Notes: generated by a model not told the origin, from the sequence alone. DNA of 64,000 nucleotides from Bacteroidota bacterium (GCA_035500675.1 DATJXA010000183.1:5949-69948), one strand, 5' to 3'; shown: positions 2,408 to 60,734, counted from the stretch's first letter. A program made the numbers and translations.

Positions 2408-2415
2408 CCATAGTT

Positions 2416-3309
2416 ATGGCAACGTTAAGAGACATACGCCGGAGCATTGCCGGGATCAAAAGTACGCAAAAGATCACGAAGGCGATGAAGATGGTAGCCG
2501 CCGCGAAGCTTCGGCGCGCGCAGGAAGCGATCCTTCAGGCGCGGCCGTATGCGCGGAAGATGGCGGAGATGCTGCGCCATCTTTCCGGAAAAGTTGACGT
2601 AACTAAATTCCCGGAACTTGCACAGCGTCCCGTTGCAAAAGTTGCTCTCGTCGTGGTGACGGCCGACCGCGGATTGTGCGGAGGGTTCAACACGAACATT
2701 GTACGGGCGGCGACGCGCCACATTCAAGATAACTATGCAGCGCTGAATGCCGCAGGGAACCTCAAACTGATTTGCGTTGGCAAAAAAGGGTTCGAATATT
2801 TCAAAAGGCGAAATTATCAAATTGCCGCGAAATATGTCGGCCTTTTCCATGCCTTACAATTTACCGACGCGCGGACGATCGTGAAACAGATCGTCGATGG
2901 ATATGCCGGCGGCGAATTCGACAAAGTCGAGATCGTTTACAATGAATTTAAGAACGCCGCGCAGCAGCGCATCGTCATCGAGCAATTTTTGCCGATTCCA
3001 CCAGACGCCGTCACAGCGGAGGGGCCTCATTCAGCGCAGGCTTCGGTCGATTATATTTACGAGCCGTCGAGCGATGAGATCGTCTCGTCGCTTGTCCCGA
3101 AGCATCTGAATTTTCAGATGTGGCGTGTGTTGCTCGAATCCAACGCCGCGGAGCAAGGTGCACGGATGACCGCAATGGAAAACGCGTCGTCGAACGCAAA
3201 AGAATTGATCCAGTCTCTACAATTATCCTACAACAAAGCACGGCAGGCATCGATCACAAAAGAGCTGCTGGAAATTGTGAGCGGGGCGGAAGCGCTGAAA
3301 AGCAATTAA
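2416..3309 (+). CDS. atpG: F-type ATP synthase subunit gamma
   Basis: 297 aa. N-terminus MATLRDIRRSIAGIKSTQKITKAMKMVAAAKLRRAQ and C-terminus ..ITKELLEIVSGAEAL are gamma hallmarks. Confidence 0.96.
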   Translation: MATLRDIRRSIAGIKSTQKITKAMKMVAAAKLRRAQEAILQARPYARKMAEMLRHLSGKVDVTKFPELAQRPVAKVALVVVTADRGLCGGFNTNIVRAATRHIQDNYAALNAAGNLKLICVGKKGFEYFKRRNYQIAAKYVGLFHALQFTDARTIVKQIVDGYAGGEFDKVEIVYNEFKNAAQQRIVIEQFLPIPPDAVTAEGPHSAQASVDYIYEPSSDEIVSSLVPKHLNFQMWRVLLESNAAEQGARMTAMENASSNAKELIQSLQLSYNKARQASITKELLEIVSGAEALKSN

Positions 3310-3310
3310 G

Positions 3311-3364
3311 AATGAATAATTAATAACGATCTGCGATTTCAACGCTTTAATTATTCATTTTTCA
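3311..3364 (+). terminator. AT-rich hairpin after atpG (possible terminator)
   Basis: Perfect 13-bp inverted repeat aatgaataattaa (3311-3323) / ttaattattcatt (3347-3359) with a 23-nt loop, followed by a short T run. The stem is all A/T, so it is weak. Confidence 0.35.
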
Positions 3365-3381
3365 TTATTAATTGATTTCAT

Positions 3382-4704
3382 GTGTTCGATACTCTTACTC
3401 AAAAATTAGATTTAGTTCTCAAGCGGCTGCGCGGCCAGGGACGGATTTCCGAAGCGAACATTGCCGAGACGCTCCGCGAAGTGCGCAAGGTGCTGCTCGA
3501 CGCCGACGTCAATTATAAAGTCGTCAAGCAGTTTATCGAGAACGTACAGCAGAAATCGCTCGGCAAAGAGGTGTTGACGAGCGTAGCGCCGGGACAGCTC
3601 ATCGTCAAGATTATTCATGACGAGCTTGTCGCGCTGCTCGGCACGGCGAAAGCCGATTTGACGATATCGCAAACGCCTCCGTCGGTGATTCTCATAGCGG
3701 GATTGCAGGGTTCGGGCAAAACGACGTTTGCCGGAAAGCTTGCATTGTTGCTGAAGTCAAAAGGACGCAGTCCGCTCCTTGTCGCCGCCGACGTCTACAG
3801 GCCTGCGGCGATCGACCAGTTGACGACGCTCGGCGAGCAGATCGGCGTTCCTGTCTTCTCGAGCCGGACGGAGAGCGCCATCGATATCGCGAAGAACAGC
3901 GTCGACCATGCGCGGAAAAATGCGCGCGACACGGTGATCATCGATACCGCGGGCCGCATGCATGTCGATGAAGAGATGATGCGCGAAGTGGAGAGTATTA
4001 AGTCGATCGTCGAGCCTCACGAGATTCTTTTCGTCGTGGATGCGATGACGGGACAGGATGCCGTCAATACCGCGAAAGCGTTTCACGACCGGCTCAGTTT
4101 CGACGGGGTCGTCCTGACGAAGCTCGACGGCGACGCACGCGGAGGCGCGGCGCTTTCGATACGCTCCATCGTCGAAAAGCCGATCAAGTTTATCGGTACC
4201 GGAGAGAAGCTCGATGCCCTGGAGCCATTCCATCCGGATCGCATGGCATCGCGCATTCTGGGGATGGGCGACATCGTCACGCTCGTCGAAAAAGCACAGC
4301 AATCTTTCGACCAGGAAAAGGCGCAGCAACTCGAGCAGAAAATCAGGAAGTCCCAGTTCACGCTCGAGGATTTTTACAGCCAGCTGCAGGAGATCAAAAA
4401 AATGGGTCCGCTGAGCCAGGTGCTTTCGATGATCCCCGGCGCGAATAAACTCGGTGATGTCAACAACGTCAACGACGACGAGATGAAATACGTCGAAGCG
4501 ATCATCCTCTCGATGACGGTCGAAGAGCGCCAACGGCCCGCGATCATCAACGGCTCGCGGCGCAAACGCATCGCGCTGGGGAGCGGCACATCGGTGCAGG
4601 AGGTCAACAAGCTTCTGAAGCAATTCTTCGAGATGCAAAAAATGATGAAGAATTTCTCTAAAGGAAAGAATATGGGGCGCATGATGGCCCAGCGATTTCA
4701 CTAA
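3382..4704 (+). CDS. ffh: Signal recognition particle protein Ffh
   Basis: 440 aa, GTG start. SRP54 N/G domain (GLQGSGKTT, DTAGR, TKLDGDARGG) and a Met-rich M domain (..EMQKMMKNFSKGKNMGRMM..). Confidence 0.97.
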   Translation: MFDTLTQKLDLVLKRLRGQGRISEANIAETLREVRKVLLDADVNYKVVKQFIENVQQKSLGKEVLTSVAPGQLIVKIIHDELVALLGTAKADLTISQTPPSVILIAGLQGSGKTTFAGKLALLLKSKGRSPLLVAADVYRPAAIDQLTTLGEQIGVPVFSSRTESAIDIAKNSVDHARKNARDTVIIDTAGRMHVDEEMMREVESIKSIVEPHEILFVVDAMTGQDAVNTAKAFHDRLSFDGVVLTKLDGDARGGAALSIRSIVEKPIKFIGTGEKLDALEPFHPDRMASRILGMGDIVTLVEKAQQSFDQEKAQQLEQKIRKSQFTLEDFYSQLQEIKKMGPLSQVLSMIPGANKLGDVNNVNDDEMKYVEAIILSMTVEERQRPAIINGSRRKRIALGSGTSVQEVNKLLKQFFEMQKMMKNFSKGKNMGRMMAQRFH

Positions 4705-4755
4705 GTTGCATATTAATCAGCATCTCATCATATTTAAAGAAAAAGGAGAAACTTT

Positions 4756-5211
4756 TTGGCAGTCAAATTACGATTACAACGCATAGGCAAGAAGAAACAG
4801 CCTTTGTACAAAATTGTTGCGATTGATTCCCGCAGGAAGCGCAACGGTCGATTCATCGACGCCGTGGGCTCATACAATCCCCGCACCAACCCCATGACCA
4901 TCACGCTGAGGGAAGACCGTGTCTTCCACTGGCTGGAACGCGGCGCGCAGCCCACCGACACCGTCAAGAATTTGCTGAGCCGGAAAGGCGTGTGGCTCAA
5001 ATGGGGTCTCAAAAAGAAGAAGGCCGACGACGCAACGATCGCCGCTGAATTTGAAAAGTGGCAGATGACGCAGACGCTCAAATTGCAAAAAGAGAACGAA
5101 CGCAAGATGCGGCGAAATGCCGTGAAGAAGAAAAAGAAAGAGGCGGCCTCAGAAGCTCCCGCCCAGCCGGCTGCTGCAGCGCCGGAAGCCCCCGCGCCTG
5201 CTCAGCCTTAA
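4756..5211 (+). CDS. rpsP: 30S ribosomal protein S16 with a long Lys/Ala/Pro-rich C-terminal extension
   Basis: TTG start 8 nt after AAGGAG. MAVKLRLQRIGKKKQPLYKIVAIDSRRKRNGRFIDAVGSYNP is canonical S16. The tail is ..KKKKKEAASEAPAQPAAAAPEAPAPAQP. Confidence 0.95.
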   Translation: MAVKLRLQRIGKKKQPLYKIVAIDSRRKRNGRFIDAVGSYNPRTNPMTITLREDRVFHWLERGAQPTDTVKNLLSRKGVWLKWGLKKKKADDATIAAEFEKWQMTQTLKLQKENERKMRRNAVKKKKKEAASEAPAQPAAAAPEAPAPAQP

Positions 5212-5315
5212 AAGGCAGTCACGCTCCGCGCCGAACGGAAGAAGACTCAAGCGAACCGACAGCACGACCATACGATAAGTTTGCAGTAGTTTTTCGAACA
5301 GCTCGAGGAGGTACC

Positions 5316-5546
5316 ATGCGGGAGTTCATCGAGTATATAGCGAAACAACTCGTCGACAACCCGGATGCAGTTTCCCTAGTCGATGAGGAAAAGGAGGGGA
5401 AGATCATCCTTAAGTTGAAAGTAGGGGAATCCGATGTCGGCAAGATCATCGGACGAAAAGGACGGACCGCTCAAGCGATGCGCATTCTCTTGAGCGCCGT
5501 TGCGGCAAAGAGCGGGAAGCGAGCGATGCTTGAAGTTCTCGACTGA
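5316..5546 (+). CDS. KH-domain RNA-binding protein (YlqC/UPF0109 family)
   Basis: ATG 5316 preceded by GGAGG. 76 aa with KH GxxG loop (VGKIIGRKGRTAQAMR). Conserved position between rpsP and rimM. The 162-aa track ORF from 5058 is an upstream extension overlapping rpsP. Confidence 0.85.
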   Translation: MREFIEYIAKQLVDNPDAVSLVDEEKEGKIILKLKVGESDVGKIIGRKGRTAQAMRILLSAVAAKSGKRAMLEVLD

Positions 5547-5567
5547 TCTCAGCCCGTCAATCATTGG

Positions 5568-6125
5568 ATGCACAACGAGCACAGAGCTTTGAATTCTCGA
5601 GAAGGATCGACTCCCGGTTTTCGCGCGATTGGCGTTATCGCAAAAGTGTTTGGCATAAAAGGAGAGGTGAAAGTCCACTCGTATTCGAGGTCCATCGAGC
5701 AGTTTGAAGAACTCGACTCGGTGTTCGTCGGCAGGGATGATCAGAAGACCGCACGGAGAAAGATCGAGCGGGTGGTCCCGCGGGGCGATGAGATCTATGT
5801 GAAATTTGAAGGAGTGGACGACCGCAACGCGTCGGAATTATTGGTCGGTCAGTTTTTGTTCGTTGAAGAATCCCGCCGGAAGCGCCTCTCTTCGGGAGAA
5901 TATTTTGTGGATGATATCGTCGGGCTGCTGGTCCTCGACGAAACAGAAAAAAAGTTGGGGGTCGTCAAGGAAGTCCTGCACTATCCGGCGCACGACGTCT
6001 ATGTGGTGAAGGTGGGAAGGAACGATGTGATGGTGCCCGCGGTGCGCGAAATTATCCGAGAGGTCGATCTGAAAAAACGCACCGTCACGATCGCTCCTCC
6101 CGAAGGACTTTTTGAAGGATCATGA
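5568..6125 (+). CDS. rimM: 16S rRNA processing protein RimM
   Basis: 185 aa. RimM N-domain (IGVIAKVFGIKGEVKVHSYS) plus a PRC-barrel C-terminus. Overlaps the trmD start. Exact start is uncertain. Confidence 0.9.
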   Translation: MHNEHRALNSREGSTPGFRAIGVIAKVFGIKGEVKVHSYSRSIEQFEELDSVFVGRDDQKTARRKIERVVPRGDEIYVKFEGVDDRNASELLVGQFLFVEESRRKRLSSGEYFVDDIVGLLVLDETEKKLGVVKEVLHYPAHDVYVVKVGRNDVMVPAVREIIREVDLKKRTVTIAPPEGLFEGS

Positions 6126-6808
6126 GCATCCGTGTCGACATTCTTTCAGCTGTCCCTAAGCTCCTCACGAGCCCGCTGAACGAGAGCATCATCAAGATCG
6201 CACAGGAAAAGAAACTCGCCGAGATTGTCGTGCACGACCTGCGTACGTTTACGCACGACAAGCATCACACGCTCGACGAGCCGCCGTACGGCGGCGGCGC
6301 AGGGATGATCATGAAGCCCGAGCCGATCTTCGAATGTATCGAGTCGCTGAAAGCCGAGCGGAGCTACGACGAAATTATCTATGTCACGGCGGACGGACAT
6401 CGGTTCGACCAGAAAATTGCAAACGAACTTTCACTGAAATCGAACCTCATCATCCTGTGCGGCCACTACAAAGGGATCGATGAACGCGTTCGGACGTCCC
6501 TTATCACGCGGGAGATCTCGATCGGCGACTATGTATTGACGGGGGGAGAACTCGCGGCGCTCGTCGTCACGGACGCGGTCGTCCGGCTGATACCGGGTGT
6601 GATCGGGGACGGGGAATCGGCGCTGAACGACTCGTTCCAGGATGGGCTGCTCGATAACCCACACTACACGCGTCCGGCCGAGTTCCGCGGGATGAAAGTT
6701 CCGACAGTCCTCCTGTCGGGGAACCACAAAGAAATTGACGCATGGCGGGAAGATGAGCGGTTGAAACGGACCGCCTCGCGGCGCGAAGATCTGATGACAA
6801 AAAAATAA
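6122..6808 (+). CDS. trmD: tRNA (guanine37-N1)-methyltransferase
   Basis: 228 aa. [39 protein letters not shown] motifs. ATGA overlap with rimM. Confidence 0.96.
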
Positions 6809-6833
6809 TCATGTTCACGAACGGAGCAAAGCA

Positions 6834-7175
6834 ATGAGCAAGATCAAATTAGTAGAAGCCACGCAGATAAAAACTGGCATCCCCGAGTTTTCGACGGGGG
6901 ATACGCTGAACGTCCACGTGCGCGTGGTCGAAGGAGACAAAGAGCGCATCCAGCAATTTCAAGGAGTCGTCATCGGCAAACGGGGGAACGGCCTCGGTTC
7001 TACATTCACGATCCGAAAAGTGTCGGACGGCGTCGGCGTGGAAAGGATCTTCCCGACCCATTCGCCGCGCATCGCAAAGATCGAGAAAGTGAAGTCGAGC
7101 AAGGTTCGCCGGGCAAAGCTGTACTACCTGCGCGACCTCGCCGCAAAACAGATACGTCAGAAGACCAGCGTCTAG
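6834..7175 (+). CDS. rplS: 50S ribosomal protein L19
   Basis: 113 aa. [38 protein letters not shown] is canonical L19. Confidence 0.97.
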
Positions 7176-7182
7176 GACGTCG

Positions 7183-7983
7183 GTGCCTCAAGAGACGGTC
7201 CACATCAACGCGCTCCCCGACCTCTATTGCCTGCCGATTGTCTTCGGCATACAGGAAAAGGAAAGTCCCGCCTCGGCGGGACTTTTGTTTGACAGCGCCG
7301 GAGTGAATACCGAACGCATCCTCAATAACGAGTGCGATGCCGGGCTCATCGGACCGGTGGAATACGCTCGCAACAGTTCCGACTTCTCCCTCTATCCATT
7401 CGTCGGCGTTCGATCGATGGGGGAAAGCAACACCATCGTCCTTTGCATCAACCGGGACATCAGGTCGATTTCTTCCGTTGCCGTGGGCGTTGTCTCTTCA
7501 TCCGAGATCGTCCTTGCAAAAATTATTCTCTCCGAGAAGTATGAACAGGAAATCGCCGTCGTTCCCGTTCTTGGTTCCGTCGAACAGATGCTCGCAAAGG
7601 CGGACGCAGCGCTCCTCAGCGGCAACAATGCGTTACGCGCGTCATGGACGGGACCGAAGCTCGACCTCGTTGACGAATGGAACGACCTAACGGATCTCCC
7701 ATTTGTTCATGCCGTCTGCGCCGCCCGTAAAGAAAGACACACAGCGGAAATTGCTTCCATGCTTCGGTCATCGCAGGAACGAGGGGCTGCGTCCCTTTCA
7801 GAAATTGCCGCGCGTCAATCGAAGGAGTTATCACTCCCTTCTGAAAAGATCGAAGAACAGCTTGAGCGCTACGCATATGGGTTAGATGACGAAGCGCGCG
7901 AGGCCCTCGGGGAATTTTATCGATATGCTTTCTATCTCGGCATGCTGCCCGACATACCGGAGATCGACGTGTATTCTTCTTGA
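7183..7983 (+). CDS. mqnA: Chorismate dehydratase-like protein (MqnA family, futalosine menaquinone pathway)
   Basis: 266 aa, GTG start. MqnA-like blocks (ECDAGLIGPVEYAR, DAALLSGNNAL, DLVDEWNDLTDLPFVHAVCAARKE). Family assignment rests on motif recall only. Confidence 0.65.
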   Translation: MPQETVHINALPDLYCLPIVFGIQEKESPASAGLLFDSAGVNTERILNNECDAGLIGPVEYARNSSDFSLYPFVGVRSMGESNTIVLCINRDIRSISSVAVGVVSSSEIVLAKIILSEKYEQEIAVVPVLGSVEQMLAKADAALLSGNNALRASWTGPKLDLVDEWNDLTDLPFVHAVCAARKERHTAEIASMLRSSQERGAASLSEIAARQSKELSLPSEKIEEQLERYAYGLDDEAREALGEFYRYAFYLGMLPDIPEIDVYSS

Positions 7984-8073
7984 ATGGAAATTTCGGGTCC
8001 TGGAACGTCGCAGCAACTTGCCTTCTTTCTCTCTTTGGTTGATACTCTCCAAAAATCGGCGTAACTTCTGTCC

Positions 8074-9804
8074 ATGCTGCGCTCTCTCTACATCAAACAC
8101 TATGCTCTCATCGAAGAAGTGAAAGTCGATTTCGAGCATGGGTTAACCATCCTCACGGGAGAGACCGGCGCGGGGAAATCTATCCTCATCGATGCCTTAA
8201 GTTTGCTTCTCGGCGAACGCGCGAGCACGGAGGTCGTGCGCGCTGGGACTGAGAAGGCTATCGTCGAAGGGACGTTCGAGATAGCGCTCACGCAAAGAGT
8301 GGGATCGCTCCTTGATGCGAATCAAATTGACCGGACCGACGAAGTCATTGTGCGGCGGGAAATTTCGACGAAGGGGCAGAACCGATGTTTCATCAACGAT
8401 TCGCCCGCATCTCTTGCACTTCTGAAAGAGATAGGCGATGCCCTCGTCGATCTTCATGGTCAACATGATCATCAGGCCCTGCTCCGTCCCGAGACGCATA
8501 TCGATTTTTTGGACGACTTCGGCGGGTACGATAAGGACTTGGCGGCATACCGCACATCGTTTCACGCTCTTGCCGCTCTCCTTGCGGAAAAAAAGGAGTT
8601 GATGGAGCAAGTACTGCGGTTCAAAGAAAAAAAAGATCTCAATGAGTTTCAGGCGCATGAAATTGACGCCGTCAATCCGCAGCACGGAGAAGAGGAATCG
8701 CTTGAAGCTGAACTGAAAATCCTCGAAAATGGCGAGAAGTTACACGAGATGACCAACCGGCTGAGCCAGCTTCTCTATGAAGGCGCAGACGGGGAGACGT
8801 CCATCCATGACAACCTCGTCCTTGCGCGAAAGCAAATAGAAGCGCTCAACGGAATTGACCCCTCGTTTGCCGACGCGGCAGGCGAGGTCAAATCCGCCGA
8901 AATCATCGTTGAAGAGCTTTCCAAATTCATCCAAAGCTATAATTCGAAAATCGAGATCAATCCGGAAAAACTGGAGCATGTGCGCGAGCGGCTGGGGCAA
9001 CTCTCGCTCCTAAAAAAGAAATACGGCGGCACGGTCGACACGATCCTTGACCACCGGAAGAAGCTCGCATCGGAGCTTGATATCGTCGGAAATTTTGATA
9101 AGGAACTTGCGGGGCTTGAGTCCGCCATCGCAAAAGAACGATCGACCTGTGCCGAAGCGGCGAAAACTGTGAGTGGCCGCCGACGGGAGGCGGCAAAAAA
9201 AATAGAAAAAGCCGTGGTGAATGCGCTTACCGAGCTCGGGATCGCGAACGCTCAATTCAAAGTAAAAATTGAAAATTTCCCTTCCACACCGAGCGAAAGC
9301 GATGGCAAGATTTTTGTGAAGATTGGACAACAAAATGTCTCGGCGACCTCGAAGGGGATCGACGACGTCGAATTCTATCTGTCGACAAACGTCGGCGAAG
9401 CCCTCAAGCCGCTTGCGAAGGTCGCTTCCGGCGGCGAGGTGTCGAGGGTGATGCTTGCTCTTAAATCGGCTCTGGCACAATCGGACAAGACGCCGCTGCT
9501 GATCTTCGATGAGATCGATGTCGGCGTCAGCGGACGGATTGGTCAGGCAGTCGGCCTGAGCTTGAAAAAACTCTCAACGCTACACCAGATCATCACCATC
9601 ACGCACTTGCCTCAGATCGCAGGACTTGCGGATACGCACTTTGCAGTCGAAAAAATTGACGATGGGAAACGAACGACGACACGGCTTCGGAAGCTCGACG
9701 TCGAAGAAAGCGTTCGCGAAGTGGCAAAGCTCATGAGTGGCGAGAAAGTGACCGAAACCGGATTACAGGGAGCGAGAGAGTTAATGGGTATCAGAAAAAA
9801 GTAA
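8074..9804 (+). CDS. recN: DNA repair protein RecN
   Basis: 576 aa. N-terminus MLRSLYIKHYALIEEVKVDFEHGLTILTGETGAGKSILIDAL (Walker A), long coiled coil, C-terminal SGGEVSRVMLALK signature and LLIFDEIDVGVSG Walker B. Confidence 0.94.
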   Translation: MLRSLYIKHYALIEEVKVDFEHGLTILTGETGAGKSILIDALSLLLGERASTEVVRAGTEKAIVEGTFEIALTQRVGSLLDANQIDRTDEVIVRREISTKGQNRCFINDSPASLALLKEIGDALVDLHGQHDHQALLRPETHIDFLDDFGGYDKDLAAYRTSFHALAALLAEKKELMEQVLRFKEKKDLNEFQAHEIDAVNPQHGEEESLEAELKILENGEKLHEMTNRLSQLLYEGADGETSIHDNLVLARKQIEALNGIDPSFADAAGEVKSAEIIVEELSKFIQSYNSKIEINPEKLEHVRERLGQLSLLKKKYGGTVDTILDHRKKLASELDIVGNFDKELAGLESAIAKERSTCAEAAKTVSGRRREAAKKIEKAVVNALTELGIANAQFKVKIENFPSTPSESDGKIFVKIGQQNVSATSKGIDDVEFYLSTNVGEALKPLAKVASGGEVSRVMLALKSALAQSDKTPLLIFDEIDVGVSGRIGQAVGLSLKKLSTLHQIITITHLPQIAGLADTHFAVEKIDDGKRTTTRLRKLDVEESVREVAKLMSGEKVTETGLQGARELMGIRKK

Positions 9805-9821: not shown

Positions 9822-11273
9822 ATGGCCCTCACCATTTATAATACGTTGTCGCGTTCAAAAGAGGAATTCACGCCGCTCCATGAAGGACGCGTTGGAATGT
9901 ATGTCTGCGGACCGACGGTCTACAGCGATTCTCACATCGGACACGGCAAGAGCTACGTCTCCTTCGACGTCATCGTGCGATACCTTCGGTACCTCGGTTA
10001 CAAAGTACTGTATGTCCAGAATATCACGGATGTCGGACACCTTCTCGACGACGGTGAAGACCGCATGCTTAAGCAATCGCGCATCGATAAGATCCATCCG
10101 ATGCAGATCGCCGAGAAGATCACGCGAAGTTATTTTGACGACATGGACGCGCTCAACGTGCTGCGCCCCGACATTTCGCCGCGGGCTACGGGACATATCA
10201 TCGAGCAAACCGAGATCGTAAAAGAGCTTCTCACAAAAGGATACGCGTACGAGGTTAATGGTTCCGTCTATTTCGACGTGCGCAAATTCAAAAATTACGG
10301 AAAACTTTCGGGCCGGTCGGTCGATGAAATGAAAGAAGGAACCCGCGTCGAAGTGAAGTCGGAAAAGCGCAACCCCGAAGATTTTGCTTTATGGAAAAAG
10401 GCCGAGCCGGAACACATCATGCGTTGGCCGAGTCCATGGGGCGACGGATTTCCCGGCTGGCATATTGAATGCTCGGCGATGTCGATGAAGTATCTTGGCG
10501 AGACGTTCGATATCCACGGCGGAGGCCTCGACAATCAGTTTCCTCATCACGAGTGCGAGATCGCTCAAAGCGAGAGCGCGACCGGCAAACATTTCGTAAA
10601 ATATTGGGTCCACAATAATCTTGTAACCGTCAACGGCCAGAAGATGTCGAAGTCTCTCGGCAATTTTGTGACCCTTAAAGACGAGTTCAAGAAATTCGAC
10701 CCGATCGTTGTCCGTTTTTTCATCCTCCAGAGCCATTATCGCAGCACGCTCGATTTTAGCGAGCAGGCGATGGAAGCATCGAAGGTCGGTCTTTCGAAGC
10801 TGAACAACAGCGTCCGAAAATTACGCGAGATGAATGATTTTGCGAAGCGGGCGTCCTCGTTTGGAATGTTCGAAAGAGACCTGACTCCCCTCCGTAATGG
10901 ATTCCTCGAAGCGATGAACGACGATTTCAACACGCCGAAAGGGATTGCTATTTTATTCGAGCTTGTTTCCATCGTGAACGAATGGCTTGCTCCCGGAATG
11001 CTTCCCAATGAAGCGACGCTTCATGAAGCGTTGAGCCTGTTTGATGATTTTGGGTCGCGGATCCTCGGCATCATTCCAACCGAGACGGTGGCAACCGATG
11101 CAGGAGACGCGGCGACGGAAAAGGGACTTATGGAATTAATTCTTGGATTACGAAAACGCGCAAGGGCGGAGTCCCAATGGCAAACCGCCGATGCAATCCG
11201 CAAAGGCCTCGAACAGCTTAATATTAAGATAGAAGACAGCAAAGATGGTACGACAACATGGAAAAAGGCATAG
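9822..11273 (+). CDS. cysS: Cysteine--tRNA ligase
   Basis: 483 aa. Class I motifs HIGHGKSY and [21 protein letters not shown] and [19 protein letters not shown] blocks. Confidence 0.97.
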
Positions 11274-11360
11274 AATCTTTATACATTGAAGAGGAATATG
11301 GCCTTCTTTCGTGTAAACTTCCGGGCCATAGATTCGTCTAACCAATTGGAAGGAATATCA

Positions 11361-12122
11361 GTGAAAAGACTGCTATTCGCTTTTACAGTATTCGTCGTTC
11401 ATTGTTCATTGATAGCTCAGATTACGGCCGGCGATGCTGCAGATATCGAGCCGCGCTATGTTATCGACACACCCACAGCCGGGCTTTTGAAACGCGGAGC
11501 GTTCGCGATGGATGTGGACTTTTTCCAAAACGGCGGAATGACCGTTGGCCTCTCGGCCGGCGCGCTCGATAGATTGATGTTCGGCATTTCATACGGCGGG
11601 AGCGGAATTATCGGACAGGGAAATATTTCGATGCAGAAGCTCCCGGGAATCAACGTGAAGTACCGGTTGATCGATGAAACAATAGCGATGCCTGCGATCG
11701 CGTTCGGGTTCGACTCTCAAGGCAAGGAAACCTACATCGACAGCACCGAACGGTTCAAGATCAAATCGCGCGGGTTTTTCGCTGCAGCAAGCAAGAACTA
11801 TTCTTTAGCAGGGAACCTGAGCATTCATGGAGGGACAAATTACAGTCTTGAAAACAAAGACGGCAACAAAGCTCTCGATTTTTTTGCAGGAGTTGAAAAA
11901 TCCCTCGGCTCGGACATCTCTCTGCTCTTTGAGTACGATTTTGGACTGAACGACAATATCGGCGTTGTCGGGCGCGGGCGCGGATATCTCAACGGAGGGA
12001 TACGCTGGTCGTGGGGGAATGGATTTACCCTTGGCGCTGACCTCAAGGATCTTGTGAAAAATCAAGACCACGTGACGGTGGGGAACAGGACGATTAAAGT
12101 AGAATATGTGCGGACGCTGTAG
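11361..12122 (+). CDS. Signal-peptide protein, probable outer-membrane beta-barrel, unknown family
   Basis: GTG 11361 lies 6 nt after GGAAGGA and gives the signal peptide VKRLLFAFTVFVVHCSLIAQ. The track start at 11286 is an alternative. Alternating beta-strand-like pattern rich in G/S/N/Y. No family recognised. Confidence 0.45.
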   Translation: MKRLLFAFTVFVVHCSLIAQITAGDAADIEPRYVIDTPTAGLLKRGAFAMDVDFFQNGGMTVGLSAGALDRLMFGISYGGSGIIGQGNISMQKLPGINVKYRLIDETIAMPAIAFGFDSQGKETYIDSTERFKIKSRGFFAAASKNYSLAGNLSIHGGTNYSLENKDGNKALDFFAGVEKSLGSDISLLFEYDFGLNDNIGVVGRGRGYLNGGIRWSWGNGFTLGADLKDLVKNQDHVTVGNRTIKVEYVRTL

Positions 12123-12216
12123 CCCCGCATGGTAAGACCGAGTTCTAAGGAATGATAAGCTTCCTCACGATGTTAAGATTATAAGATCTACTATTGGACA
12201 AGAGAGGAAGGAAACT

Positions 12217-13182
12217 ATGATGAAAACCACCCTCAAATTTTCAGGACTGCTGATAGCGGGATTTGTATTGGCGGGATGTTATACACAATTACAGACTGCT
12301 AACGATGAAGATCCCGGAAGCCGCGATCAAAGTGATTACACATCGGGAGACGTTTCAGACACGACCAGCGACACCACAAGTGCCAACTATTTTTCCGACG
12401 ATACATATCGAGAAGAGCAATATCGCACGGCGTTCGATTATTACTATCCACCACCTTACGTTTGGGGAGCTGATTATGCTTACGATCCGTGGTATGATTA
12501 CTCATGGAACGGCTGGGATTATTGGTATGGTTCCGGACTTTGGTATCCGACGTTAGTGTATCCATTTCCGTACTGGTACGCCCATTACAATCGCTATCCA
12601 TATTATGGGTATGGCTACGGATTCGGGTACGGATATTGGGGTGGCGGCCATGGGGGATATCGAGGCAGAGGGATTGCGGGCAGAACAAGAACAACCGGCA
12701 TTTCTCGCGGCGACATCGGAAATTATCGAATGCGTGGAGAGTCCGTTACGCCCTCGGGCGCTCAAGCTGCCGGAAGTGCAGTAAGGTCGAGGACTTCAGC
12801 GACGACGGCTCCAGTTACGGCTTCTTCATCGGCCGCTTCTCGCAGCAGGTCGCGGAATGAAATCCCATGGTGGCAACGGATGAAAAGCTCGGAACAAGCG
12901 TCGTCTGAGAACACTCGTGCACGATCAAGTCGCGAAACAGCGACAACCTCCCCTCGGCGTAACGCTGTGCGGTCGGAACGTATCGCAAATAGACAACAAG
13001 CCAGAAGGAATTACTATCGTCCATCGTCTGCGGGGAGGGCGAATTCTGAACGAGTACAACGAGGTCGATCCGCTCCCGCGTCGCGTCAGGGATCGCCGCG
13101 GTATTCTTCACCACCCCGCTCCGGAGGCCGGAGTGCAGGCGGTGCGGCTAGAAGCGGCGGAGGAAGGTCAAGGAAGAATTGA
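12217..13182 (+). CDS. Lipoprotein with a Tyr/Trp/Gly-rich block and an Arg/Ser-rich disordered tail
   Basis: Lipobox ..FVLAGC. Aromatic block YYYPPPYVWGADYAYDPWYDYSWNGWDYWYGSGLWYP..YGYGYGFGYGYWGGGHGGYRGRG, then about 150 aa of R/S/A/T-rich sequence. No recognised family. Confidence 0.6.
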   Translation: MMKTTLKFSGLLIAGFVLAGCYTQLQTANDEDPGSRDQSDYTSGDVSDTTSDTTSANYFSDDTYREEQYRTAFDYYYPPPYVWGADYAYDPWYDYSWNGWDYWYGSGLWYPTLVYPFPYWYAHYNRYPYYGYGYGFGYGYWGGGHGGYRGRGIAGRTRTTGISRGDIGNYRMRGESVTPSGAQAAGSAVRSRTSATTAPVTASSSAASRSRSRNEIPWWQRMKSSEQASSENTRARSSRETATTSPRRNAVRSERIANRQQARRNYYRPSSAGRANSERVQRGRSAPASRQGSPRYSSPPRSGGRSAGGAARSGGGRSRKN

Positions 13183-13211
13183 TAGCGAAGAAAAATATTC
13201 TGTATAGATAT

Positions 13212-13841
13212 ATGTTGTACCTCTGCGCGATAGGAATATTTTCGCTTAGCGGCTGCTACACGGTTTTGATGCATCCATCGGTTCTGACAAAATCGGAAGA
13301 CGGCGATGGATCGACTCAGAATACTCAAGGTGATTACACAGCATCTGATATTTCCTACAATCAGAATTGTCTTTCGTGCCATAGCCAGGCGGAATTGGAC
13401 GACAGATATTACGATATGCAAAGCGTTGGGATGGTCACGGCTCATGGACTGGATGTAGATCCTTACGGATGGCGAAATCCTTCCGCCGGCGTTCCGTGGT
13501 GGTATGACGCGACTGCTCCGGTTCCGTCCACCGCCGTCTCCAAGACGTCCTCGTCTTCGGCAAGTTCAAGCGGTCCACACACACGAAAAACCGGAGAAAC
13601 GCGGGGAGGCGATGGGTCTCCCGCAGACGGAACAGTTCAGGCATCGACATCTTCAACCACTACAACGTCGCCTGCCAGCGCACCGACTCCCTCGGCTGCA
13701 AGCGCAGGCGCTCGAGATCGTTCGGGGATGGAAACATCGCAGTCTCCGACCGATCGGACACGAACAACGACCACTCCTTCAGCTCCAACCCCGCCGGATG
13801 ACCGGAAAAGGGGCCCTAATCGAGGCGATGGCGAGAATTAA
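13212..13841 (+). CDS. Putative mono-haem c-type cytochrome lipoprotein with a Ser/Thr/Pro-rich tail
   Basis: ATG 13212 gives MLYLCAIGIFSLSGC (lipobox). TTG 13179 is the alternative and overlaps the upstream stop. One CxxCH site (CLSCH, codons 13368-13382). The C-terminal ~100 aa are S/T/P/R-rich. Confidence 0.55.
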   Translation: MLYLCAIGIFSLSGCYTVLMHPSVLTKSEDGDGSTQNTQGDYTASDISYNQNCLSCHSQAELDDRYYDMQSVGMVTAHGLDVDPYGWRNPSAGVPWWYDATAPVPSTAVSKTSSSSASSSGPHTRKTGETRGGDGSPADGTVQASTSSTTTTSPASAPTPSAASAGARDRSGMETSQSPTDRTRTTTTPSAPTPPDDRKRGPNRGDGEN

Positions 13842-13858
13842 GAAGAGGCAGGACTCCA

Positions 13859-15325
13859 ATGAAAACAAACCGAATAGCATTACCAGCTTTTTTAGCAAGC
13901 GTAATTTCCATAGTCCTTTTTTCAACCGCACACGCTCAATTTCCTGAAGACGCGCTCCGCTATTCTTCGACGGGGATCGGGATAGGCGCGAGAGCCATAG
14001 GGATGGGCGGGGCGTACATCGGCGTCGCCGACGATTATAGCGCGACGTTTTGGAATCCGGCCGGGCTTGCTCAAATGAGAAGGCTCGAATTCACCGGCGG
14101 ACTGGCCAACACAAGTTACTCGAATGACGCATCCTTCTTCGGCAACTCGGCGACTGCAACAAATTCCGCCACGACGCTGAACGATCTCGGGTTTGTATTT
14201 CCGTTTCCGACAGACCGCGGTAGCTTGGTTGTTTCGGCCGGTTACAACAGGACGAACGATTTTACTTCCGCACTTTCTTTTGACGGATTTAACAATCAGA
14301 GTTCTATTCTCCCGTATTTGTTCGACCCCGACGTCCGGTATGACATTCCTTACGGAGTAGGGTTAGAGGATGTGAACGAACACATCAACGTTACCAAAAA
14401 CGTCAACCAACAAGGAGACGTGCGGGAAAGCGGCGGCATGGGCAACTGGGCATTTGCCGGTGCGATCGACGTCCAGAAGGATCTTTCGTTTGGCCTGACG
14501 GTAAACGTCCTCAGCGGAAGTTATACTTATACTCGCAACTATACTGAAGCCGATACAAAGAACCTTTACTCCGACCCGCGGCCGGTAGTACCGATCGATT
14601 CGGCATATTTGAAATTCAACAACTTCTATTATAACTCGACCCTCACAAGCGATGTCTCCGGAGTGAACGCGAAGTTCGGCATGATGTACCGGTTCGAAGA
14701 TGTCGCCCGAATAGGCGTGACCATTCAAACTCCGACAACGATCAGCGTTCATGAGAACTATTCCGACGAGGGGTGGAGCACGTTCGACGATGGCTATATT
14801 CCGGTCGATTCCGGAGGAACTGTGTACAATCATCTAGCGTACGACGCATACAACGATTACAGCGTTGAGACGCCGTGGGTTTTCGGTGCCGGCGCTTCTT
14901 ACTCGCCGTTCGATGGACTGCTTCTATCCGGAGCCCTCGAGTACACGGACTGGACCCAAATTCAATGGGCGGATAATTCCGACCTCGAACAAGAGAACAT
15001 TGCGTTAAAGAAAAATTTCCGAGCTACAACAAACTACTCTGTAGGGGGTGAATTCGAAATTCCGAAAACGGAACTTCGAGTTCGGGCAGGGTATGCCTAT
15101 AAGCCATCCCCGTTTGCAGGTGATCCCTCTTCGTATGCCCAGAAGACGGTAACGGCTGGACTGGGTGTGCTCCTTCAAGATGATGTCATGTTCGATCTTG
15201 CCGCAGCATTTGGGTCGACGAAAGCCTACGACAACAATTATGGTCCTGCCGCGAGCAATTTATCGCGAACCGACGAAAGCATTTCGACAACTAACGTCTA
15301 TTTTACAATCTCATACAGGTTTTAA
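13859..15325 (+). CDS. Outer-membrane beta-barrel protein, FadL/PorV-like
   Basis: 488 aa. Signal peptide ..LFSTAHAQ. N-terminal motif GARAIGMGGAYIGVADDYSATFWNPAGLAQM as in FadL/PorV-type barrels. Ends ..YFTISYRF (terminal aromatic). Confidence 0.6.
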   Translation: MKTNRIALPAFLASVISIVLFSTAHAQFPEDALRYSSTGIGIGARAIGMGGAYIGVADDYSATFWNPAGLAQMRRLEFTGGLANTSYSNDASFFGNSATATNSATTLNDLGFVFPFPTDRGSLVVSAGYNRTNDFTSALSFDGFNNQSSILPYLFDPDVRYDIPYGVGLEDVNEHINVTKNVNQQGDVRESGGMGNWAFAGAIDVQKDLSFGLTVNVLSGSYTYTRNYTEADTKNLYSDPRPVVPIDSAYLKFNNFYYNSTLTSDVSGVNAKFGMMYRFEDVARIGVTIQTPTTISVHENYSDEGWSTFDDGYIPVDSGGTVYNHLAYDAYNDYSVETPWVFGAGASYSPFDGLLLSGALEYTDWTQIQWADNSDLEQENIALKKNFRATTNYSVGGEFEIPKTELRVRAGYAYKPSPFAGDPSSYAQKTVTAGLGVLLQDDVMFDLAAAFGSTKAYDNNYGPAASNLSRTDESISTTNVYFTISYRF

Positions 15326-15391: not shown

Positions 15392-15430
15392 AAAAAAGCG
15401 TGAATGAATTGTTCACGCTTTTTATTTTTG
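15392..15430 (+). terminator. Intrinsic terminator after the barrel gene
   Basis: agcgtgaa (15397-15404) / ttcacgct (15412-15419) stem with a 7-nt loop, flanked by an A run and tttttattttt. Confidence 0.7.
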
Positions 15431-15760
15431 CTTCGCAGCGAGGAGACAGATAAGGGGCTTTTTTTAGTAATCTCGTCACCCATCTCTATCGATAAAAAAC
15501 ACACGCCACCACCTTCTTTCCATTTTCTTGGAAACTTTACTCTATCTTCTGAGAAACATTTTCCAGAAAAATTTATATCATCCCCCCATATTTATATTTT
15601 CTTCGTGTTTTTAACGTTCTTTTTTTGCTTTAAAAGTCATACCAATGGCACACATATTGCGACCTTCTTGCTCACGAAGTCCAACTAAAGAGGCACAAGA
15701 CGGGCTTTAGAATTCTGAGGTTTGGAGCTTTTTATGAAATTTTGTAATCTGGAGATAACA

Positions 15761-17863
15761 ATGAAACGATTCTTTACAACTTGCAAAGTGCTAGCCGCTG
15801 GGATCTTGTTGGCGTTTCCTTTCTCAGAGGGGACAGCACAAACGGTCGTTGCAAAAATCCAGGCGATGTCGCCGGGACGATTGACGACGATCGGGAAAAG
15901 CAGTAATATTGCCACAACAGGTTTAGGGGTAGTCGGCAAAGGCTCGAAGGTCTATTTGTATGCAGACACGACCGGGTCTGGCGCGACGACAGTCTCTTCC
16001 TATGCGTGGACGTTCTTTTCGAAACCCTCGGGTTCATCAGCGGTATTTGACAGCGCAACCAACAGGTACACAAGCTTTACCGCAGACACGCTTGGGCAAT
16101 ACATTGTTCAAGTTTCTGTTAATGGCGGCGCGAAGACCGCGCAGGAGACCCTCTTTGTAAGCACGTATGTTGGATATTCGGGCGGAACTGTCGCATGTGC
16201 CACTTGTCATGCCAGCAACACCACAAGCTGGAAGGCGACCGGTCATGCGATGATTTACACACAAGGAATTATGGGCCAACTGGAAGTCAACACTGCCGGT
16301 TTAGGTACTTACAGCGGCAGCTGCTTTAAATGTCATACTGTGGGATGGGATCAAAATGCTAACAACGGAAATTTCGGATACCTTGCACACCAAACAGGTT
16401 GGGATACATCCTGGTACAAAGGGAAAGCGAAATCCGGAAGCTCTTATCTTATCATCAATGGAGACTCTTCGATCTACAAAAACATGGTAAGCAATTATTC
16501 TTCGCTTGTACCGCTTGCCAACATCGGATGCGAGAGTTGCCATGGGCCGGGGAAAGATCATTTAGGCGATGCAAGCAAGATCGGAAAGTCTCTTGATGCA
16601 GGCGTGTGCCAATCGTGTCACGATGCGCCGCCGCGTCACGTGTCGGGAACATATTGGTCTCTGTCAGACCATGCGACGATGCCGCTCGCAGGCACCGACG
16701 CTGTCTCGACGAGTTGCTTTCCATGCCATAGTGGAAGTGCATTTGTGAAATGGGTCAGCGACGGCAAGCCTGCAACAGACGCCAACTGGAGCGCAGCCGC
16801 AGATGCAAGCTATCCAATTACATGTGCCGTGTGCCATGATCCGCACAGTGCCGCCAATCCGAATCAGCTTCGCACTGTCAGCGTGGACACTTTGAAGAAC
16901 GGCTACCGGGTTCCGGCAGGCCTTCTTGGCGAAGGTCAACTTTGCATGAATTGCCATCGGTCGCGCTACAACGTGGCAACAAGAGTCACCACGAAAGCTC
17001 CTTACTATGGATTCGTAGATCACTATGGCCCGCACGGAAACCCACAGGCGGACATGCTGCTCGGCCAAAATGGATACCAGTACGGCGACTCATCGCTCAC
17101 TGGATTAACGACCCATACTGGTCTTACCAATGGATGCGTCACCTGCCATATGACGGGCGACAACCATTCCCTCGCAATGACCGACACGACGGGCGGCCTG
17201 CATGATGTCGTTGCAGCCTGCCAGACTTGCCACGGCGCTGGAATTACAAAATTCGATGACATCAAGGCCTCCTATGATTACGATCGCAACGGAAAGATCG
17301 AAGGAGTCCAAACAGAGGTTGCAGGTCTCCTTGCGGAATTAAAAGCCAAGCTGCCTATCGACATCAACACGGGAGAACCGACACTCGCGCTCAAGGACAG
17401 CCTTTTAGTGAAGAATCGGCCGGACCTTGTGCAGGGAATTTACGTGTATACGTTTGTGAAGAATGACGGAAGCATGGGAGTCCACAACGCGAAGTATGCC
17501 GTGTCCCTTCTTCAGACAGCGCTCGGCTTCTATCCTACTGGAGTGAAGGTTGTTAATCAAGCGACTCCGTCGACCTTCGAATTAAGCCAGAACTATCCAA
17601 ACCCGTTCAACCCGTCGACGAATATCGAGTTTTCGATTCCTCGCACGGCGACGATTCATTTGGACGTGTATAATATTCTCGGCGAATTGGTCACGTCGCT
17701 CGCAAACGGCGACATTGTTTCCGGCAATTACAAAGTAACGTGGAACGGAACGAACAACCATGGGCAATCGGTCGCTAGCGGTATTTACTTCTACAGACTT
17801 GTCGTTACTTCCAACGGAGCTCCGCAATTCGTTACGACAAAGAAAATGTTGTTGACTAAGTAA
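15761..17863 (+). CDS. Nine-haem c-type cytochrome with N-terminal Ig/PKD-like domain and T9SS C-terminal sorting domain
   Basis: ATG 15761 after GGAG gives the signal peptide MKRFFTTCKVLAAGILLAFPFSEGTAQ. Nine CxxCH sites (CATCH, CFKCH, CESCH, CQSCH, CFPCH, CAVCH, CMNCH, CVTCH, CQTCH). The C-terminus ..LSQNYPNPFNPSTNIEFSIP..SGIYFYRL..KKMLLTK is a Por secretion tail. Confidence 0.9.
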   Translation: MKRFFTTCKVLAAGILLAFPFSEGTAQTVVAKIQAMSPGRLTTIGKSSNIATTGLGVVGKGSKVYLYADTTGSGATTVSSYAWTFFSKPSGSSAVFDSATNRYTSFTADTLGQYIVQVSVNGGAKTAQETLFVSTYVGYSGGTVACATCHASNTTSWKATGHAMIYTQGIMGQLEVNTAGLGTYSGSCFKCHTVGWDQNANNGNFGYLAHQTGWDTSWYKGKAKSGSSYLIINGDSSIYKNMVSNYSSLVPLANIGCESCHGPGKDHLGDASKIGKSLDAGVCQSCHDAPPRHVSGTYWSLSDHATMPLAGTDAVSTSCFPCHSGSAFVKWVSDGKPATDANWSAAADASYPITCAVCHDPHSAANPNQLRTVSVDTLKNGYRVPAGLLGEGQLCMNCHRSRYNVATRVTTKAPYYGFVDHYGPHGNPQADMLLGQNGYQYGDSSLTGLTTHTGLTNGCVTCHMTGDNHSLAMTDTTGGLHDVVAACQTCHGAGITKFDDIKASYDYDRNGKIEGVQTEVAGLLAELKAKLPIDINTGEPTLALKDSLLVKNRPDLVQGIYVYTFVKNDGSMGVHNAKYAVSLLQTALGFYPTGVKVVNQATPSTFELSQNYPNPFNPSTNIEFSIPRTATIHLDVYNILGELVTSLANGDIVSGNYKVTWNGTNNHGQSVASGIYFYRLVVTSNGAPQFVTTKKMLLTK

Positions 17864-17886
17864 GATCTAAACGTAGTCGCATTCAA

Positions 17887-17923
17887 GGGCTGGTGTGATA
17901 TCTGCACCAGCCCTTTTTATTTC
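17887..17923 (+). terminator. Intrinsic terminator after the cytochrome gene
   Basis: gggctggtg (17887-17895) / caccagccc (17905-17913) stem followed by tttttattt. Confidence 0.78.
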
Positions 17924-60199: not shown

Positions 60200-60734
60200 G
60201 TGCAGTGTAATGTACGCAACGAGGCCTGGTGATTCAAGAACGAGACGGCATGGTATCGGATGCTGGAATGTCTATGCTTGTGTCCGTCGTCCCCAACTCG
60301 CCGTGTCGGTTGTACGACGCATGTGTAATGTTCTACATAAATGGTAGCGAATCCGACCGACGATCTGTGTGACTAGCGGCAATGAGCGAGTACAGCGAAT
60401 GGCCCCTTCCTTGCTTTTCTGTTCCGGTTTCATTTATTGATATCAGCACTCCGTTACTCTCCCTGTATAATGGTCGAGATGATGTCAGAGAACCGCCTGC
60501 CTCGGAAGTGGATTAGGAAAAAATTTGCGACTCAACACGGAGTGTTCAATAAGTTGATAGACATCACACAAAGAATGCAGAACCTTCTTAGATTAAATGA
60601 AACCTGATACTCTGCCGCTGCCAGCATCGGCTGTTTTGGCACTCCGTCCTCGGAGCGCACGGTCATCACGACGTTCGTCATCTCTCGGTGCAGCGTTGAA
60701 AAGGACAGATCGATTTCGTCGCCGTTTCACCAGC

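Follow-up and report, generated by a model that had tools for sequence, protein, structure and literature searches.

By what route a multihaem cytochrome might reach the outside of a diderm cell is the question raised by one gene in a 64,000-nucleotide (nt) stretch of DNA from a Bacteroidota bacterium (GCA_035500675.1 DATJXA010000183.1:5949-69948), the whole of which is called the window here. The gene is complete and lies at 15761..17863 on the + strand, exactly where the initial annotation placed it. The open reading frame (ORF) and the Pfam and NCBIfam matches describe a 700 amino acid (aa) OcwA-like nonahaem c-type cytochrome with an N-terminal immunoglobulin (Ig)-like domain and, as its C-terminal domain (CTD), a T9SS (type IX secretion system) type A sorting domain. 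Surface routes for the cytochromes of diderm bacteria have been worked out for few Proteobacteria and consist of type II lipoprotein secretion and porin-cytochrome complexes. On balance we lean towards a reading in which the protein is an OcwA-family nonahaem that would be delivered outside the outer membrane by T9SS and would act there as a terminal extracellular oxidoreductase.

The haem domain

The nine-haem core (aa 135-510, 16163..17290, + strand) is delimited by the motif count and by a profile match to OcwA and OmhA. CxxCH motifs are situated at aa 146, 188 and 257 (first bases at nt 16196, 16322 and 16529), aa 283, 319 and 355 (nt 16607, 16715 and 16823) and aa 395, 459 and 487 (nt 16943, 17135 and 17219), all on the + strand. 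These are exactly nine, the number given in the initial annotation, and all are kept in a 30-sequence family alignment (45-80% identity), where eight are invariant and C146 is conserved at ~90%. The protein has 19 cysteines, 18 within the nine motifs and one (C8) inside the signal peptide; a nine-CxxCH pattern that holds every cysteine of the mature chain is far beyond chance. A motif scan of the 700-aa protein finds no CxxCK, CxxxCH or CxxxxCH. The family alignment also displays nine conserved histidines outside the motifs, H162, H267, H293, H304, H362, H425, H452, H469 and H575, the last of which sits in the adjoining helical region, outside the aa 135-510 core. In three of the aligned homologues H362 is replaced by Met, as for an axial ligand.

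The initial annotation had proposed a comparison with multihaem families. Pfam profiles above their gathering scores are Mtrc-MtrF_II-IV_dom (45.7 vs 30), Cytochrome_C7, Cytochrome_C554, Cytochrom_C552, Cytochrom_c3_2 and Paired_CXXCH_1. The Cytochrom_C552 match covers aa 452-591, and the helical region aligns to positions 240-373 of that profile. When a profile of the family is compared with all PDB sequences, OcwA (6i5b) is the best match (E 1.7e-18) and OmhA (6qvm) the second (E 6e-14); NrfA (E 4e-8), cytochrome c554 and the octahaem nitrite reductases rank well below these two. The OmhA alignment, which takes in the helical bundle, runs over query aa 237-591. Eight of the nine OcwA haem motifs pair in order with those of the query in the printed alignments; the haem-2 pair lies in a segment of 3 bits that is not significant, and the haem-7 pair occurs in the single-sequence alignment only. 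The single-sequence phmmer match to OcwA is weak (32.6 bits, E 3.6e-07), thus the similarity is mainly at the profile level. An NCBIfam match to a 'UshA-like (seleno)protein' (62.7 vs 275) was set aside as a local paired-CxxCH similarity.

OcwA (TherJR_2595) is the cell-surface terminal Fe(III) reductase of the Gram-positive Thermincola potens and has been characterised both biochemically and structurally (PMC6703420). Its chain joins a tetrahaem module of the c554 kind to a pentahaem module resembling NrfA and to a three-helix bundle; there are six bis-His haems and one His-Met haem, and the remaining two (haems 2 and 5) are five-coordinate with an HH pair over each (PMC6703420). The query shares with OcwA the nine CxxCH motifs in the same order, the module plan and the helical bundle. 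In the AlphaFold2 (AF2) model the C-terminal helical region (aa ~511-590, 17291..17530, + strand) shows helices at 516-528, 544-550, 554-569 and 577-588, with a predicted local distance difference test score (pLDDT) of about 69-92, and the region aligns to positions 379-495 of the OcwA chain. The helices of aa 516-588 are predicted to correspond to the three-helix bundle found in OcwA and in NrfA.

From these comparisons we conclude that the haem core is an OcwA-type nonahaem. Its c554-like tetrahaem part would be joined to an NrfA-like pentahaem part and the helical bundle, with a nine-haem wire expected by homology to OcwA. OcwA differs in belonging to a monoderm, where it resides at the cell wall, and in giving no match to the family profile over the CTD or over the N-terminal Ig part. 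In OcwA the ligand of haem 9 is Met. OmhA of Carboxydothermus ferrireducens, a surface multihaem cytochrome of the same clade, differs in its 11 haems (two extra at the N-terminus), its Gram-positive host and S-layer association, and the lack of a T9SS tail (PMC7829351, PMC9250108).

The resemblance may extend to the surroundings of haems 2 and 5. H293, conserved in 27 of the 30 aligned sequences, aligns exactly, in a continuous single-sequence alignment, with H282 of OcwA, which is the distal His at haem 2 and does not bond to it (PMC6703420). At haem 5, the OcwA segment VHHPHKEM stands opposite PH425GNPQADM of the query; the query thus has an invariant His, H425, beside the HH position, at most two residues from H380/H381 in an ambiguous register. 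A PDB search with aa 380-485, made to fix the register of the haem-5 pocket, gave zero matches. The first His of each OcwA HH pair is replaced in the query, by R292 and P424. By analogy with OcwA, two semi-open or open haem sites (haems 2 and 5) may also process small substrates.

A different reading makes the protein a periplasmic reductase of the NrfA, octahaem nitrite reductase (ONR) or MccA kind, acting on nitrite, hydroxylamine or a sulfur compound, with a C-terminal Ig domain that is not a sorting signal. The C-terminal pentahaem module and helices of NrfA, ONR and MccA are homologous to those of the query, and this reading would account for the Cytochrom_C552 match and for NrfA structures appearing at E about 4e-8. 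It would also agree with the NCBI name 'ammonia-forming cytochrome c nitrite reductase subunit c552', carried by homologues P0057, P0070, P0095 and P0116. These four have nine CxxCH each (CxxCK was not part of that count), and the name looks like an over-annotation from the shared C-terminal module. The query, however, has nine haems rather than five or eight, no CxxCK, no spare Cys for His/Cys or Lys ligation, and neither the CX15CH of the MccA type nor Cu-binding Cys; OcwA and OmhA exceed NrfA in the PDB search by 6-10 orders of magnitude. An identity as NrfA was rejected on the missing CxxCK and the haem number, Pfam C552 covering the C-terminal part only. A sulfur-type His/Cys catalytic haem, as in TsdA or MccSep, is likewise ruled out because the protein has no free Cys. 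A periplasmic enzyme of this kind appears improbable.

A decahaem of the MtrC type was also considered and rejected, as there are nine haems and a lipobox is absent, MtrC domains I and III give no match, the haem-rich domain II/IV profile being the only one that does, and TIGR03507 gives 27.4 vs 209. MtrC and OmcA are type II-exported lipoproteins with ten haems arranged as a staggered cross and two beta-barrel domains. In contrast, the query would have nine haems in NrfA-type packing and a T9SS CTD as its tag. The likeness to MtrC, OmcA and UndA of Shewanella lies in the proposed function, that of a terminal multihaem reductase outside the outer membrane of a diderm, and in the export of folded periplasmic holoproteins by a dedicated secretion system. 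OcwA itself is structurally unrelated to MtrC and OmcA (PMC6703420).

The C-terminal sorting domain

The segment aa ~605-700 (17573..17860, + strand), identified from TIGR04183, AF2 and Foldseek, was described in the initial annotation as a canonical T9SS tail. The NCBIfam profile for T9SS type A sorting, TIGR04183, recognises aa 612-685 with 30.1 bits against a cutoff of 23, whereas Pfam Por_Secre_tail (PF18962) remains below its cutoff at 23.3 vs 27; the assignment holds by the first profile and not by the second. Other Pfam profiles that pass on the tail are FlgD_ig (34.9 vs 27) and CHU_C (27.2 vs 27). Most homologues carry a precomputed PF18962 record, several of which are marked weak or faint in the gene tables of the related loci L081-L090. 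By the curated profile the tail is a genuine T9SS type A CTD.

The tail contains the motifs QNYPNPFNPST, G641, G674-x-Y676 and a terminal KKMLLTK. Conserved columns are Q610, N611, P613-P618, G641, G655, G674, Y676, K694, K695, M696 and K700, among which G641, G674, Y676, K694, K695, M696 and K700 are invariant, the chain ending in KKM-x-x-x-K. AF2 places seven strands at 608-610, 620-626, 630-638, 643-652, 655-661, 674-683 and 690-698 (block pLDDT 64-88), and the invariant G641 directly precedes predicted strand 4. Published CTD structures are 3+4 seven-strand sandwiches in which the key elements are a Gly of the beta3-beta4 loop and the C-terminal motif (PMC11285876). The tail is predicted to be a seven-strand Ig-like sandwich having these features. 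Foldseek, whose output here gives no match positions on the query, finds PorU (6za2), PorZ (5m11), FlgD and other Ig-like domains in the PDB over ~105-110 columns each, and the family sequence profile matches the C-terminal end of the PorU chain at E 9e-8 (profile positions q616-703 vs chain 1061-1154).

Characterised T9SS type A cargo proteins (RgpB, PPAD and HBP35 of P. gingivalis; the chitinase and adhesins of Flavobacterium) have the same arrangement of an N-terminal Sec signal and a ~80-95-aa Ig-like CTD, with the beta3-beta4 loop Gly, G-x-Y, a basic C-terminal motif and a passing TIGR04183 score. The difference is that known cargo consists of proteases, glycanases, adhesins and toxins, and that the host of the query falls outside the classes in which experimental T9SS work has been done.

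A hidden Markov model (HMM) built from the tail of the family was run on six-frame ORFs. Within the window it finds two further carriers, each with ~40 bits on TIGR04183, so that the 64 kb encode three CTD proteins. The longer of the two (60597-62321, + strand; 574 aa) has a NosD/beta-helix-like region, and the other (59093-60199, - strand; 368 aa) has no family assigned to it; these two form a divergent gene pair. The survey was extended to 1.27 Mb of loci from metagenome-assembled genomes (MAGs) of Ignavibacteria, Zixibacteria, Calditrichia, Cloacimonadota, Marinimicrobia, Gemmatimonadota and Bacteroidota, where 131 ORFs of 100-2584 aa have the tail as their terminus. Only 8 of the 131 contain CxxCH, namely seven 8-9-haem cytochromes and one truncated fragment; the cytochromes match the query haem region, except for a 976-aa protein of locus L083 that was left out of the comparison. 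Among full-length tail hits, 130 of 134 have the domain terminating at most five residues before the stop. A scan of a genome collection is dominated by QNYPNPFN and returns mostly unrelated CTD proteins, the haem domain being matched only in L001 and L002. Because it is strictly terminal and is found on many unrelated proteins, the tail behaves as a modular sorting signal and not as a cytochrome-specific accessory domain. Together with the passing TIGR04183 score, this argues against the periplasmic reductase.

Two loci show unusual arrangements of tail-bearing genes. In L088 (1433-18382) the cytochrome lies within a run of six consecutive or nearly consecutive Por_Secre_tail genes, beside a flagellar hook gene, and the run looks like an island of T9SS cargo genes. 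In L083 the 976-aa protein (6684-9614) is a second nine-haem cytochrome with a FlgD_ig/T9SS-type tail, encoded immediately upstream of the family member; tandem CTD-tagged cytochromes are thus encoded in some genomes.

The N-terminal region

The N-terminus carries the Sec-type signal peptide proposed in the initial annotation (aa 1-26, 15761..15838, + strand). Read by eye, MKRFFTTCKVLAAGILLAFPFSEGTA followed by QTVV displays a basic n-region and a hydrophobic core, with a probable signal peptidase I (SPase I) site at A26-Q27, and both of these residues are at least 90% conserved in the family alignment, the pair being near-invariant. Inspection of the N-terminus of the cytochrome shows no lipobox. 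The predicted cleavage (15836-15841) leaves an N-terminal Gln and resembles the 'Bacteroidetes Q-rule' of pyroglutamate N-termini, a rule reported not to hold across the whole Fibrobacteres-Chlorobi-Bacteroidetes (FCB) group (PMC5837995).

Between the signal peptide and the haem core there is a predicted beta-sandwich at aa ~57-134 (15929..16162, + strand; AF2 strands 57-134), in which most 10-residue blocks of aa 61-130 have a pLDDT of 75-90 and one is at 66. The peptide earlier called 'Ig/PKD-like', YLYADTTGSGATTVSSYAWTFFSKP...YIVQVSVNG, is found at aa 65-122. The Ig-like part of that label agrees with the predicted fold, but PKD is not established, since Pfam K319L-like_PKD is below threshold (19.3 vs 27 bits). 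In OcwA the first haem motif is ~20 residues into the 6i5b chain, therefore the crystallised chain has no space for an N-terminal Ig domain.

Family size and alternative targeting

A word-indexed search gives at least 778 clusters of homologues (90% identity) at E<=1e-5. The 120 homologues listed have 45-80% identity and are mostly full-length and nearly all unnamed. The few with names come from Bacteroidota, Ignavibacteriales and Ignavibacteria MAGs and are called 'T9SS type A sorting domain-containing protein', 'FlgD immunoglobulin-like domain containing protein' or 'multiheme c-type cytochrome'. With the haem domain (aa 134-600) as query, phmmer run exhaustively on 1.84 billion representatives gives 252 matches at E<=1e-30 and 955 at E<=1e-10. 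Among the top 150 representatives, 67 of the 130 full-length proteins have a T9SS-type tail at the end, and the others display lipoprotein signal peptides or unrelated C-terminal extensions. In phyla outside the FCB group these alternative endings and lipoprotein signals may be other signals for sorting to the surface. A homologue from Myxococcaceae (L002, 34% identity), for example, keeps the Ig-like domain and the nine haems and has a different C-terminal module. That non-FCB homologues have lipoboxes or other modules in place of the tail is what a sorting tag would show, which again speaks against a periplasmic enzyme. Because targeting devices are swapped on the same core, and because OcwA is located at the cell wall, we infer an extracellular function for the core, with export or anchoring by a system particular to each lineage.

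Homologues lacking the CTD include the L002 protein (1762-4245, Myxococcaceae MAG), P0199, P0200, P0214, P0224, P0239, P0245, P0253, P0268 and P0276. Among their C-terminal extensions one ending recurs, ...(F/Y)(F/Y)RV(I/L/V)xxP, and others of them have lipoprotein signals instead. There are also tandem giants with two or three nonahaem/octahaem modules, such as P0152 (1946 aa, 24 CxxCH), P0160 and P0164 (18 CxxCH), and P0169 and P0174 (16 CxxCH).

Electron-transfer modules beside distant homologues

Three genes of the same orientation (10197-14001) come after the tagged nonahaem in L089 (51% identity). In order, they encode a barrel-like protein (443 aa) and a 14-haem cytochrome, each with a signal peptide, and then an 11-haem lipoprotein cytochrome (TIGR01904, 50.6 vs 27); the 14-haem protein has a triheme domain of the c7 type (TIGR04257, 43 vs 40). 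In L001 (33% identity), where the nonahaem passes Pfam Por_Secre_tail (30.1 vs 27), a homologous three-gene module (3129-6603) is situated 3 kb upstream of the nonahaem and a NapC/NirT-family cytochrome (12709-14208) immediately after it. Between L001 and L089 the barrels share 21% identity (E 4e-8), the periplasmic cytochromes 31% (E 5e-44) and the lipoprotein cytochromes 36% (E 1e-42), with haem counts of 12 or 14 in the periplasmic and 11 or 14 in the lipoprotein components. Domains of the Geobacter type, c7 triheme and CxxxxCH/CxxCH, are found in the module cytochromes.

A barrel followed by a periplasmic and then a lipoprotein multihaem is also the gene order of the Geobacter ombB-omaB-omcB porin-cytochrome cluster (PMC4589669). 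The tagged nonahaem differs in that it is not a member of the known porin-cytochrome complex (Pcc) OmbB-OmaB-OmcB, and the window has no such module. The barrel proteins of L089 and L001 have no curated-family match; they may represent an undescribed type of porin for porin-cytochrome complexes. Porin-cytochrome clusters and anode enrichment have been reported for Ignavibacteria (PMC7399161).

These neighbourhoods bear on whether the protein would stay on the cell. It may instead be exported by T9SS and, with the CTD removed, be released as a soluble or matrix-bound cytochrome, serving as an electron shuttle or as a component of a biofilm 'wire'. The sequence contains nothing that specifies anchoring, and soluble secreted multihaem cytochromes have been proposed in Carboxydothermus (PMC7829351). 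A free cytochrome would, however, require re-reduction at the cell surface, and the lipoprotein cytochromes beside the nonahaem in L089 and L001 suggest a surface-bound partner complex. OcwA and OmhA, moreover, are associated with the cell wall or S-layer and act in Fe(III) reduction (PMC6703420, PMC9250108, PMC7829351). Release is considered unlikely.

The direction of electron flow is likewise not fixed by the sequence. With inward flow the nonahaem would be reduced by Fe(II), reduced minerals, cathodes or partner cells, in oxidative extracellular or direct interspecies electron transfer, and multihaem wires are reversible in principle, as with the Mtr/Mto homologues. This is regarded as very improbable, given the Fe(III)-reducing function of the characterised relatives OcwA and OmhA (PMC7829351, PMC6703420), the NapC/NirT-type neighbour in L001, a class that usually serves as quinol dehydrogenase, and Ignavibacteria isolates described as Fe(III) reducers (PMC3534657, PMC7399161).

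Proposed route and points against it

For the preferred reading, a T9SS-delivered surface nonahaem, the following sequence of steps may be envisaged. The protein would be exported by Sec and cleaved by SPase I at A26-Q27, a step for which the signal itself is seen. Nine haems would then be attached in the periplasm as the c554-like tetrahaem and NrfA-like pentahaem modules fold. T9SS would recognise the folded Ig-like CTD and translocate the protein across the outer membrane, where, by analogy with Porphyromonas and Flavobacterium, a PorU-type sortase would remove the CTD and the protein would be attached to a surface glycolipid or released. From OcwA biochemistry and the neighbourhoods of relatives, the surface nonahaem would take electrons from a separate outer-membrane porin-cytochrome conduit and pass them to acceptors that are insoluble or macromolecular, examples being Fe(III)/Mn(IV) oxides, humics, flavins, electrodes and partner cells. 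T9SS moves the protein and not electrons, so a porin-cytochrome path across the outer membrane is still needed. Export of the holoprotein by T9SS, cleavage of the CTD, surface anchoring and localisation are what we infer from the sequence.

In a wider and more tentative form, which we hold to be plausible though not quite probable, T9SS would be a general route, not recognised before, by which FCB bacteria (Bacteroidota of the Ignavibacteria-like kind and their neighbours) export assembled multihaem cytochromes and fix them at the surface, the nonahaem docking onto a Pcc-like conduit. This would be a third way for diderm bacteria, beside type II-exported lipoproteins and porin-embedded cytochromes. 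A precedent for the export of folded multihaem holoproteins through an outer-membrane secretion system is the type II export of MtrC and OmcA.

Several points weigh against the preferred reading. The miss on Pfam Por_Secre_tail, although narrow, leaves the general Ig-like profile FlgD_ig with the higher score. The window and the 10 kb beyond its 5' end contain none of the T9SS core genes (sprA/sov, porV, porU, porK-N/gldK-N), no haem-maturation gene and no porin-cytochrome module, the 10-kb extension carrying only ATP synthase and housekeeping genes; the T9SS machinery in this genome is thus assumed. To our knowledge no T9SS cargo with covalently bound cofactors is on record, although no dedicated search was made, and the cross-section of an OcwA-like monomer is near the size of the translocon lumen. 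The AF2 model has an overall mean pLDDT of 66 and a poor haem core, on which haem spacing is unverifiable; because of this the continuity of the haem wire rests on OcwA homology and Foldseek returned Ig-like matches only. In most relatives the cytochrome gene stands alone among unrelated housekeeping genes, an electron-transfer module being present in 2 of 9 contexts. OcwA also reduces nitrite and hydroxylamine, weakly and slowly, which leaves the physiological substrate undecided (PMC6703420). The FlgD_ig score, the T9SS genes not seen in the window and the weak activity of OcwA would fit the periplasmic reductase as well.

As to the machinery, eight CTD-bearing ORFs of 1158-1300 aa in the fetched loci include no PorU sortase, the best (L078) reaching 90 vs 420 bits. 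Indirect evidence for the machinery comes from the three CTD proteins encoded in the window and from the literature, in which T9SS may exist in Ignavibacteriota and other FCB phyla (PMC11285876). Glycanases of Melioribacter roseus carry Por sorting domains (PMC3534657).

Gene boundaries and neighbouring genes

The ORF begins with ATG at 15761 and its stop codon occupies 17861-17863. A Shine-Dalgarno-like GGAGA read from the sequence (15751..15755, + strand) ends 5 nt before this ATG. Alternative starts upstream are TTG 15722 and ATG 15734, the latter used in the Joint Genome Institute (JGI) gene call of 709 aa. The start at 15761 is preferred because of the GGAGA spacing and because the homologues begin with MKRF...; the signal peptide is retained with the start at either 15761 or 15734. 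A hairpin resembling an intrinsic terminator (17885..17915, + strand), with a 13-bp stem containing 7 G-C pairs followed by a T-run, lies 22 nt past the stop, and a second is found at 15393-15423, 3' of the upstream FadL-like gene. Both were found by pattern scan and are consensus matches only. The hairpins bracket the cytochrome gene and therefore suggest that it forms a separate transcription unit.

The window upstream of the cytochrome contains recN, cysS and a four-gene envelope block (11286-15325, + strand) of three small envelope proteins and a FadL-family barrel. Its products are an outer-membrane-like protein (278 aa), a lipoprotein with an extreme content of Tyr/Trp and then of Arg/Ser (321 aa), a Ser/Thr/Pro-rich lipoprotein (220 aa) and the 488-aa barrel (13859-15325). 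Downstream are RfaE-type kinase and adenylyltransferase genes, a TamB/AsmA-like protein and RNase R. The barrel was considered as a PorV-type shuttle and rejected, since PorV_fam gives 43.5 vs 90 with the N-terminal motif only, BamG gives 72.9 vs 250, and all named homologues are FadL/OmpP1 transporters. The 220-aa lipoprotein was considered as a monohaem partner, but its CLSCH is SLSCP in the 71%-identical syntenic relative.

Gene order is fully syntenic in that relative (L081) and in the JGI metagenome contigs L085 and L092, which carry identical copies of the FadL-like and AtpA proteins of the window. At 50-58% identity (L082-L084, L090) the synteny is gone, thus the cytochrome gene is free-standing. 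A conserved operon with the four upstream genes was rejected, as the synteny is confined to close relatives and terminator-like hairpins flank the cytochrome gene.

Significance

OcwA-type surface nonahaems and T9SS type A cargo are each known already, and their fusion is visible in automatic annotation. Three points go beyond the initial annotation: the haem domain is of the OcwA kind, the family is large, and a separate outer-membrane electron conduit is needed. The initial annotation had placed the display of cytochromes through T9SS outside the well-studied paradigms, and this agrees with the literature: no open-access paper was found that links T9SS/Por secretion to multihaem cytochromes or extracellular electron transfer, subscription journals lying outside the search. 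The Melioribacter genome paper treats T9SS/Por secretion and multihaem cytochromes or extracellular electron transfer in separate contexts only (PMC3534657). In Gavrilov et al., OcwA is the sole monoderm member of a nonahaem subclade from Gram-negative bacteria, and the route of those nonahaems to the surface is not discussed (PMC7829351). Work on Ignavibacteria discusses porin-cytochrome complexes only (PMC7399161). As a delivery route for multihaem cytochromes, T9SS is unrecognised in the open-access papers found.

Ignavibacteria and related FCB bacteria, which are suspected of reducing iron, occur commonly in sediments, aquifers, anode biofilms and wastewater. If the reading is correct, the cargo range of T9SS would reach a 700-aa protein with nine covalent cofactors, which bears on the size and folding tolerance of the translocon, and the Gram-positive OcwA paradigm would be tied to diderm bacteria. 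The combination of multihaem motifs with TIGR04183 would then provide a simple sequence marker for surface cytochromes in metagenomes, and the automatic nitrite reductase annotations of family members would be corrected. Resting at present on sequence inference, the proposal is a widespread and testable hypothesis that bridges two fields.

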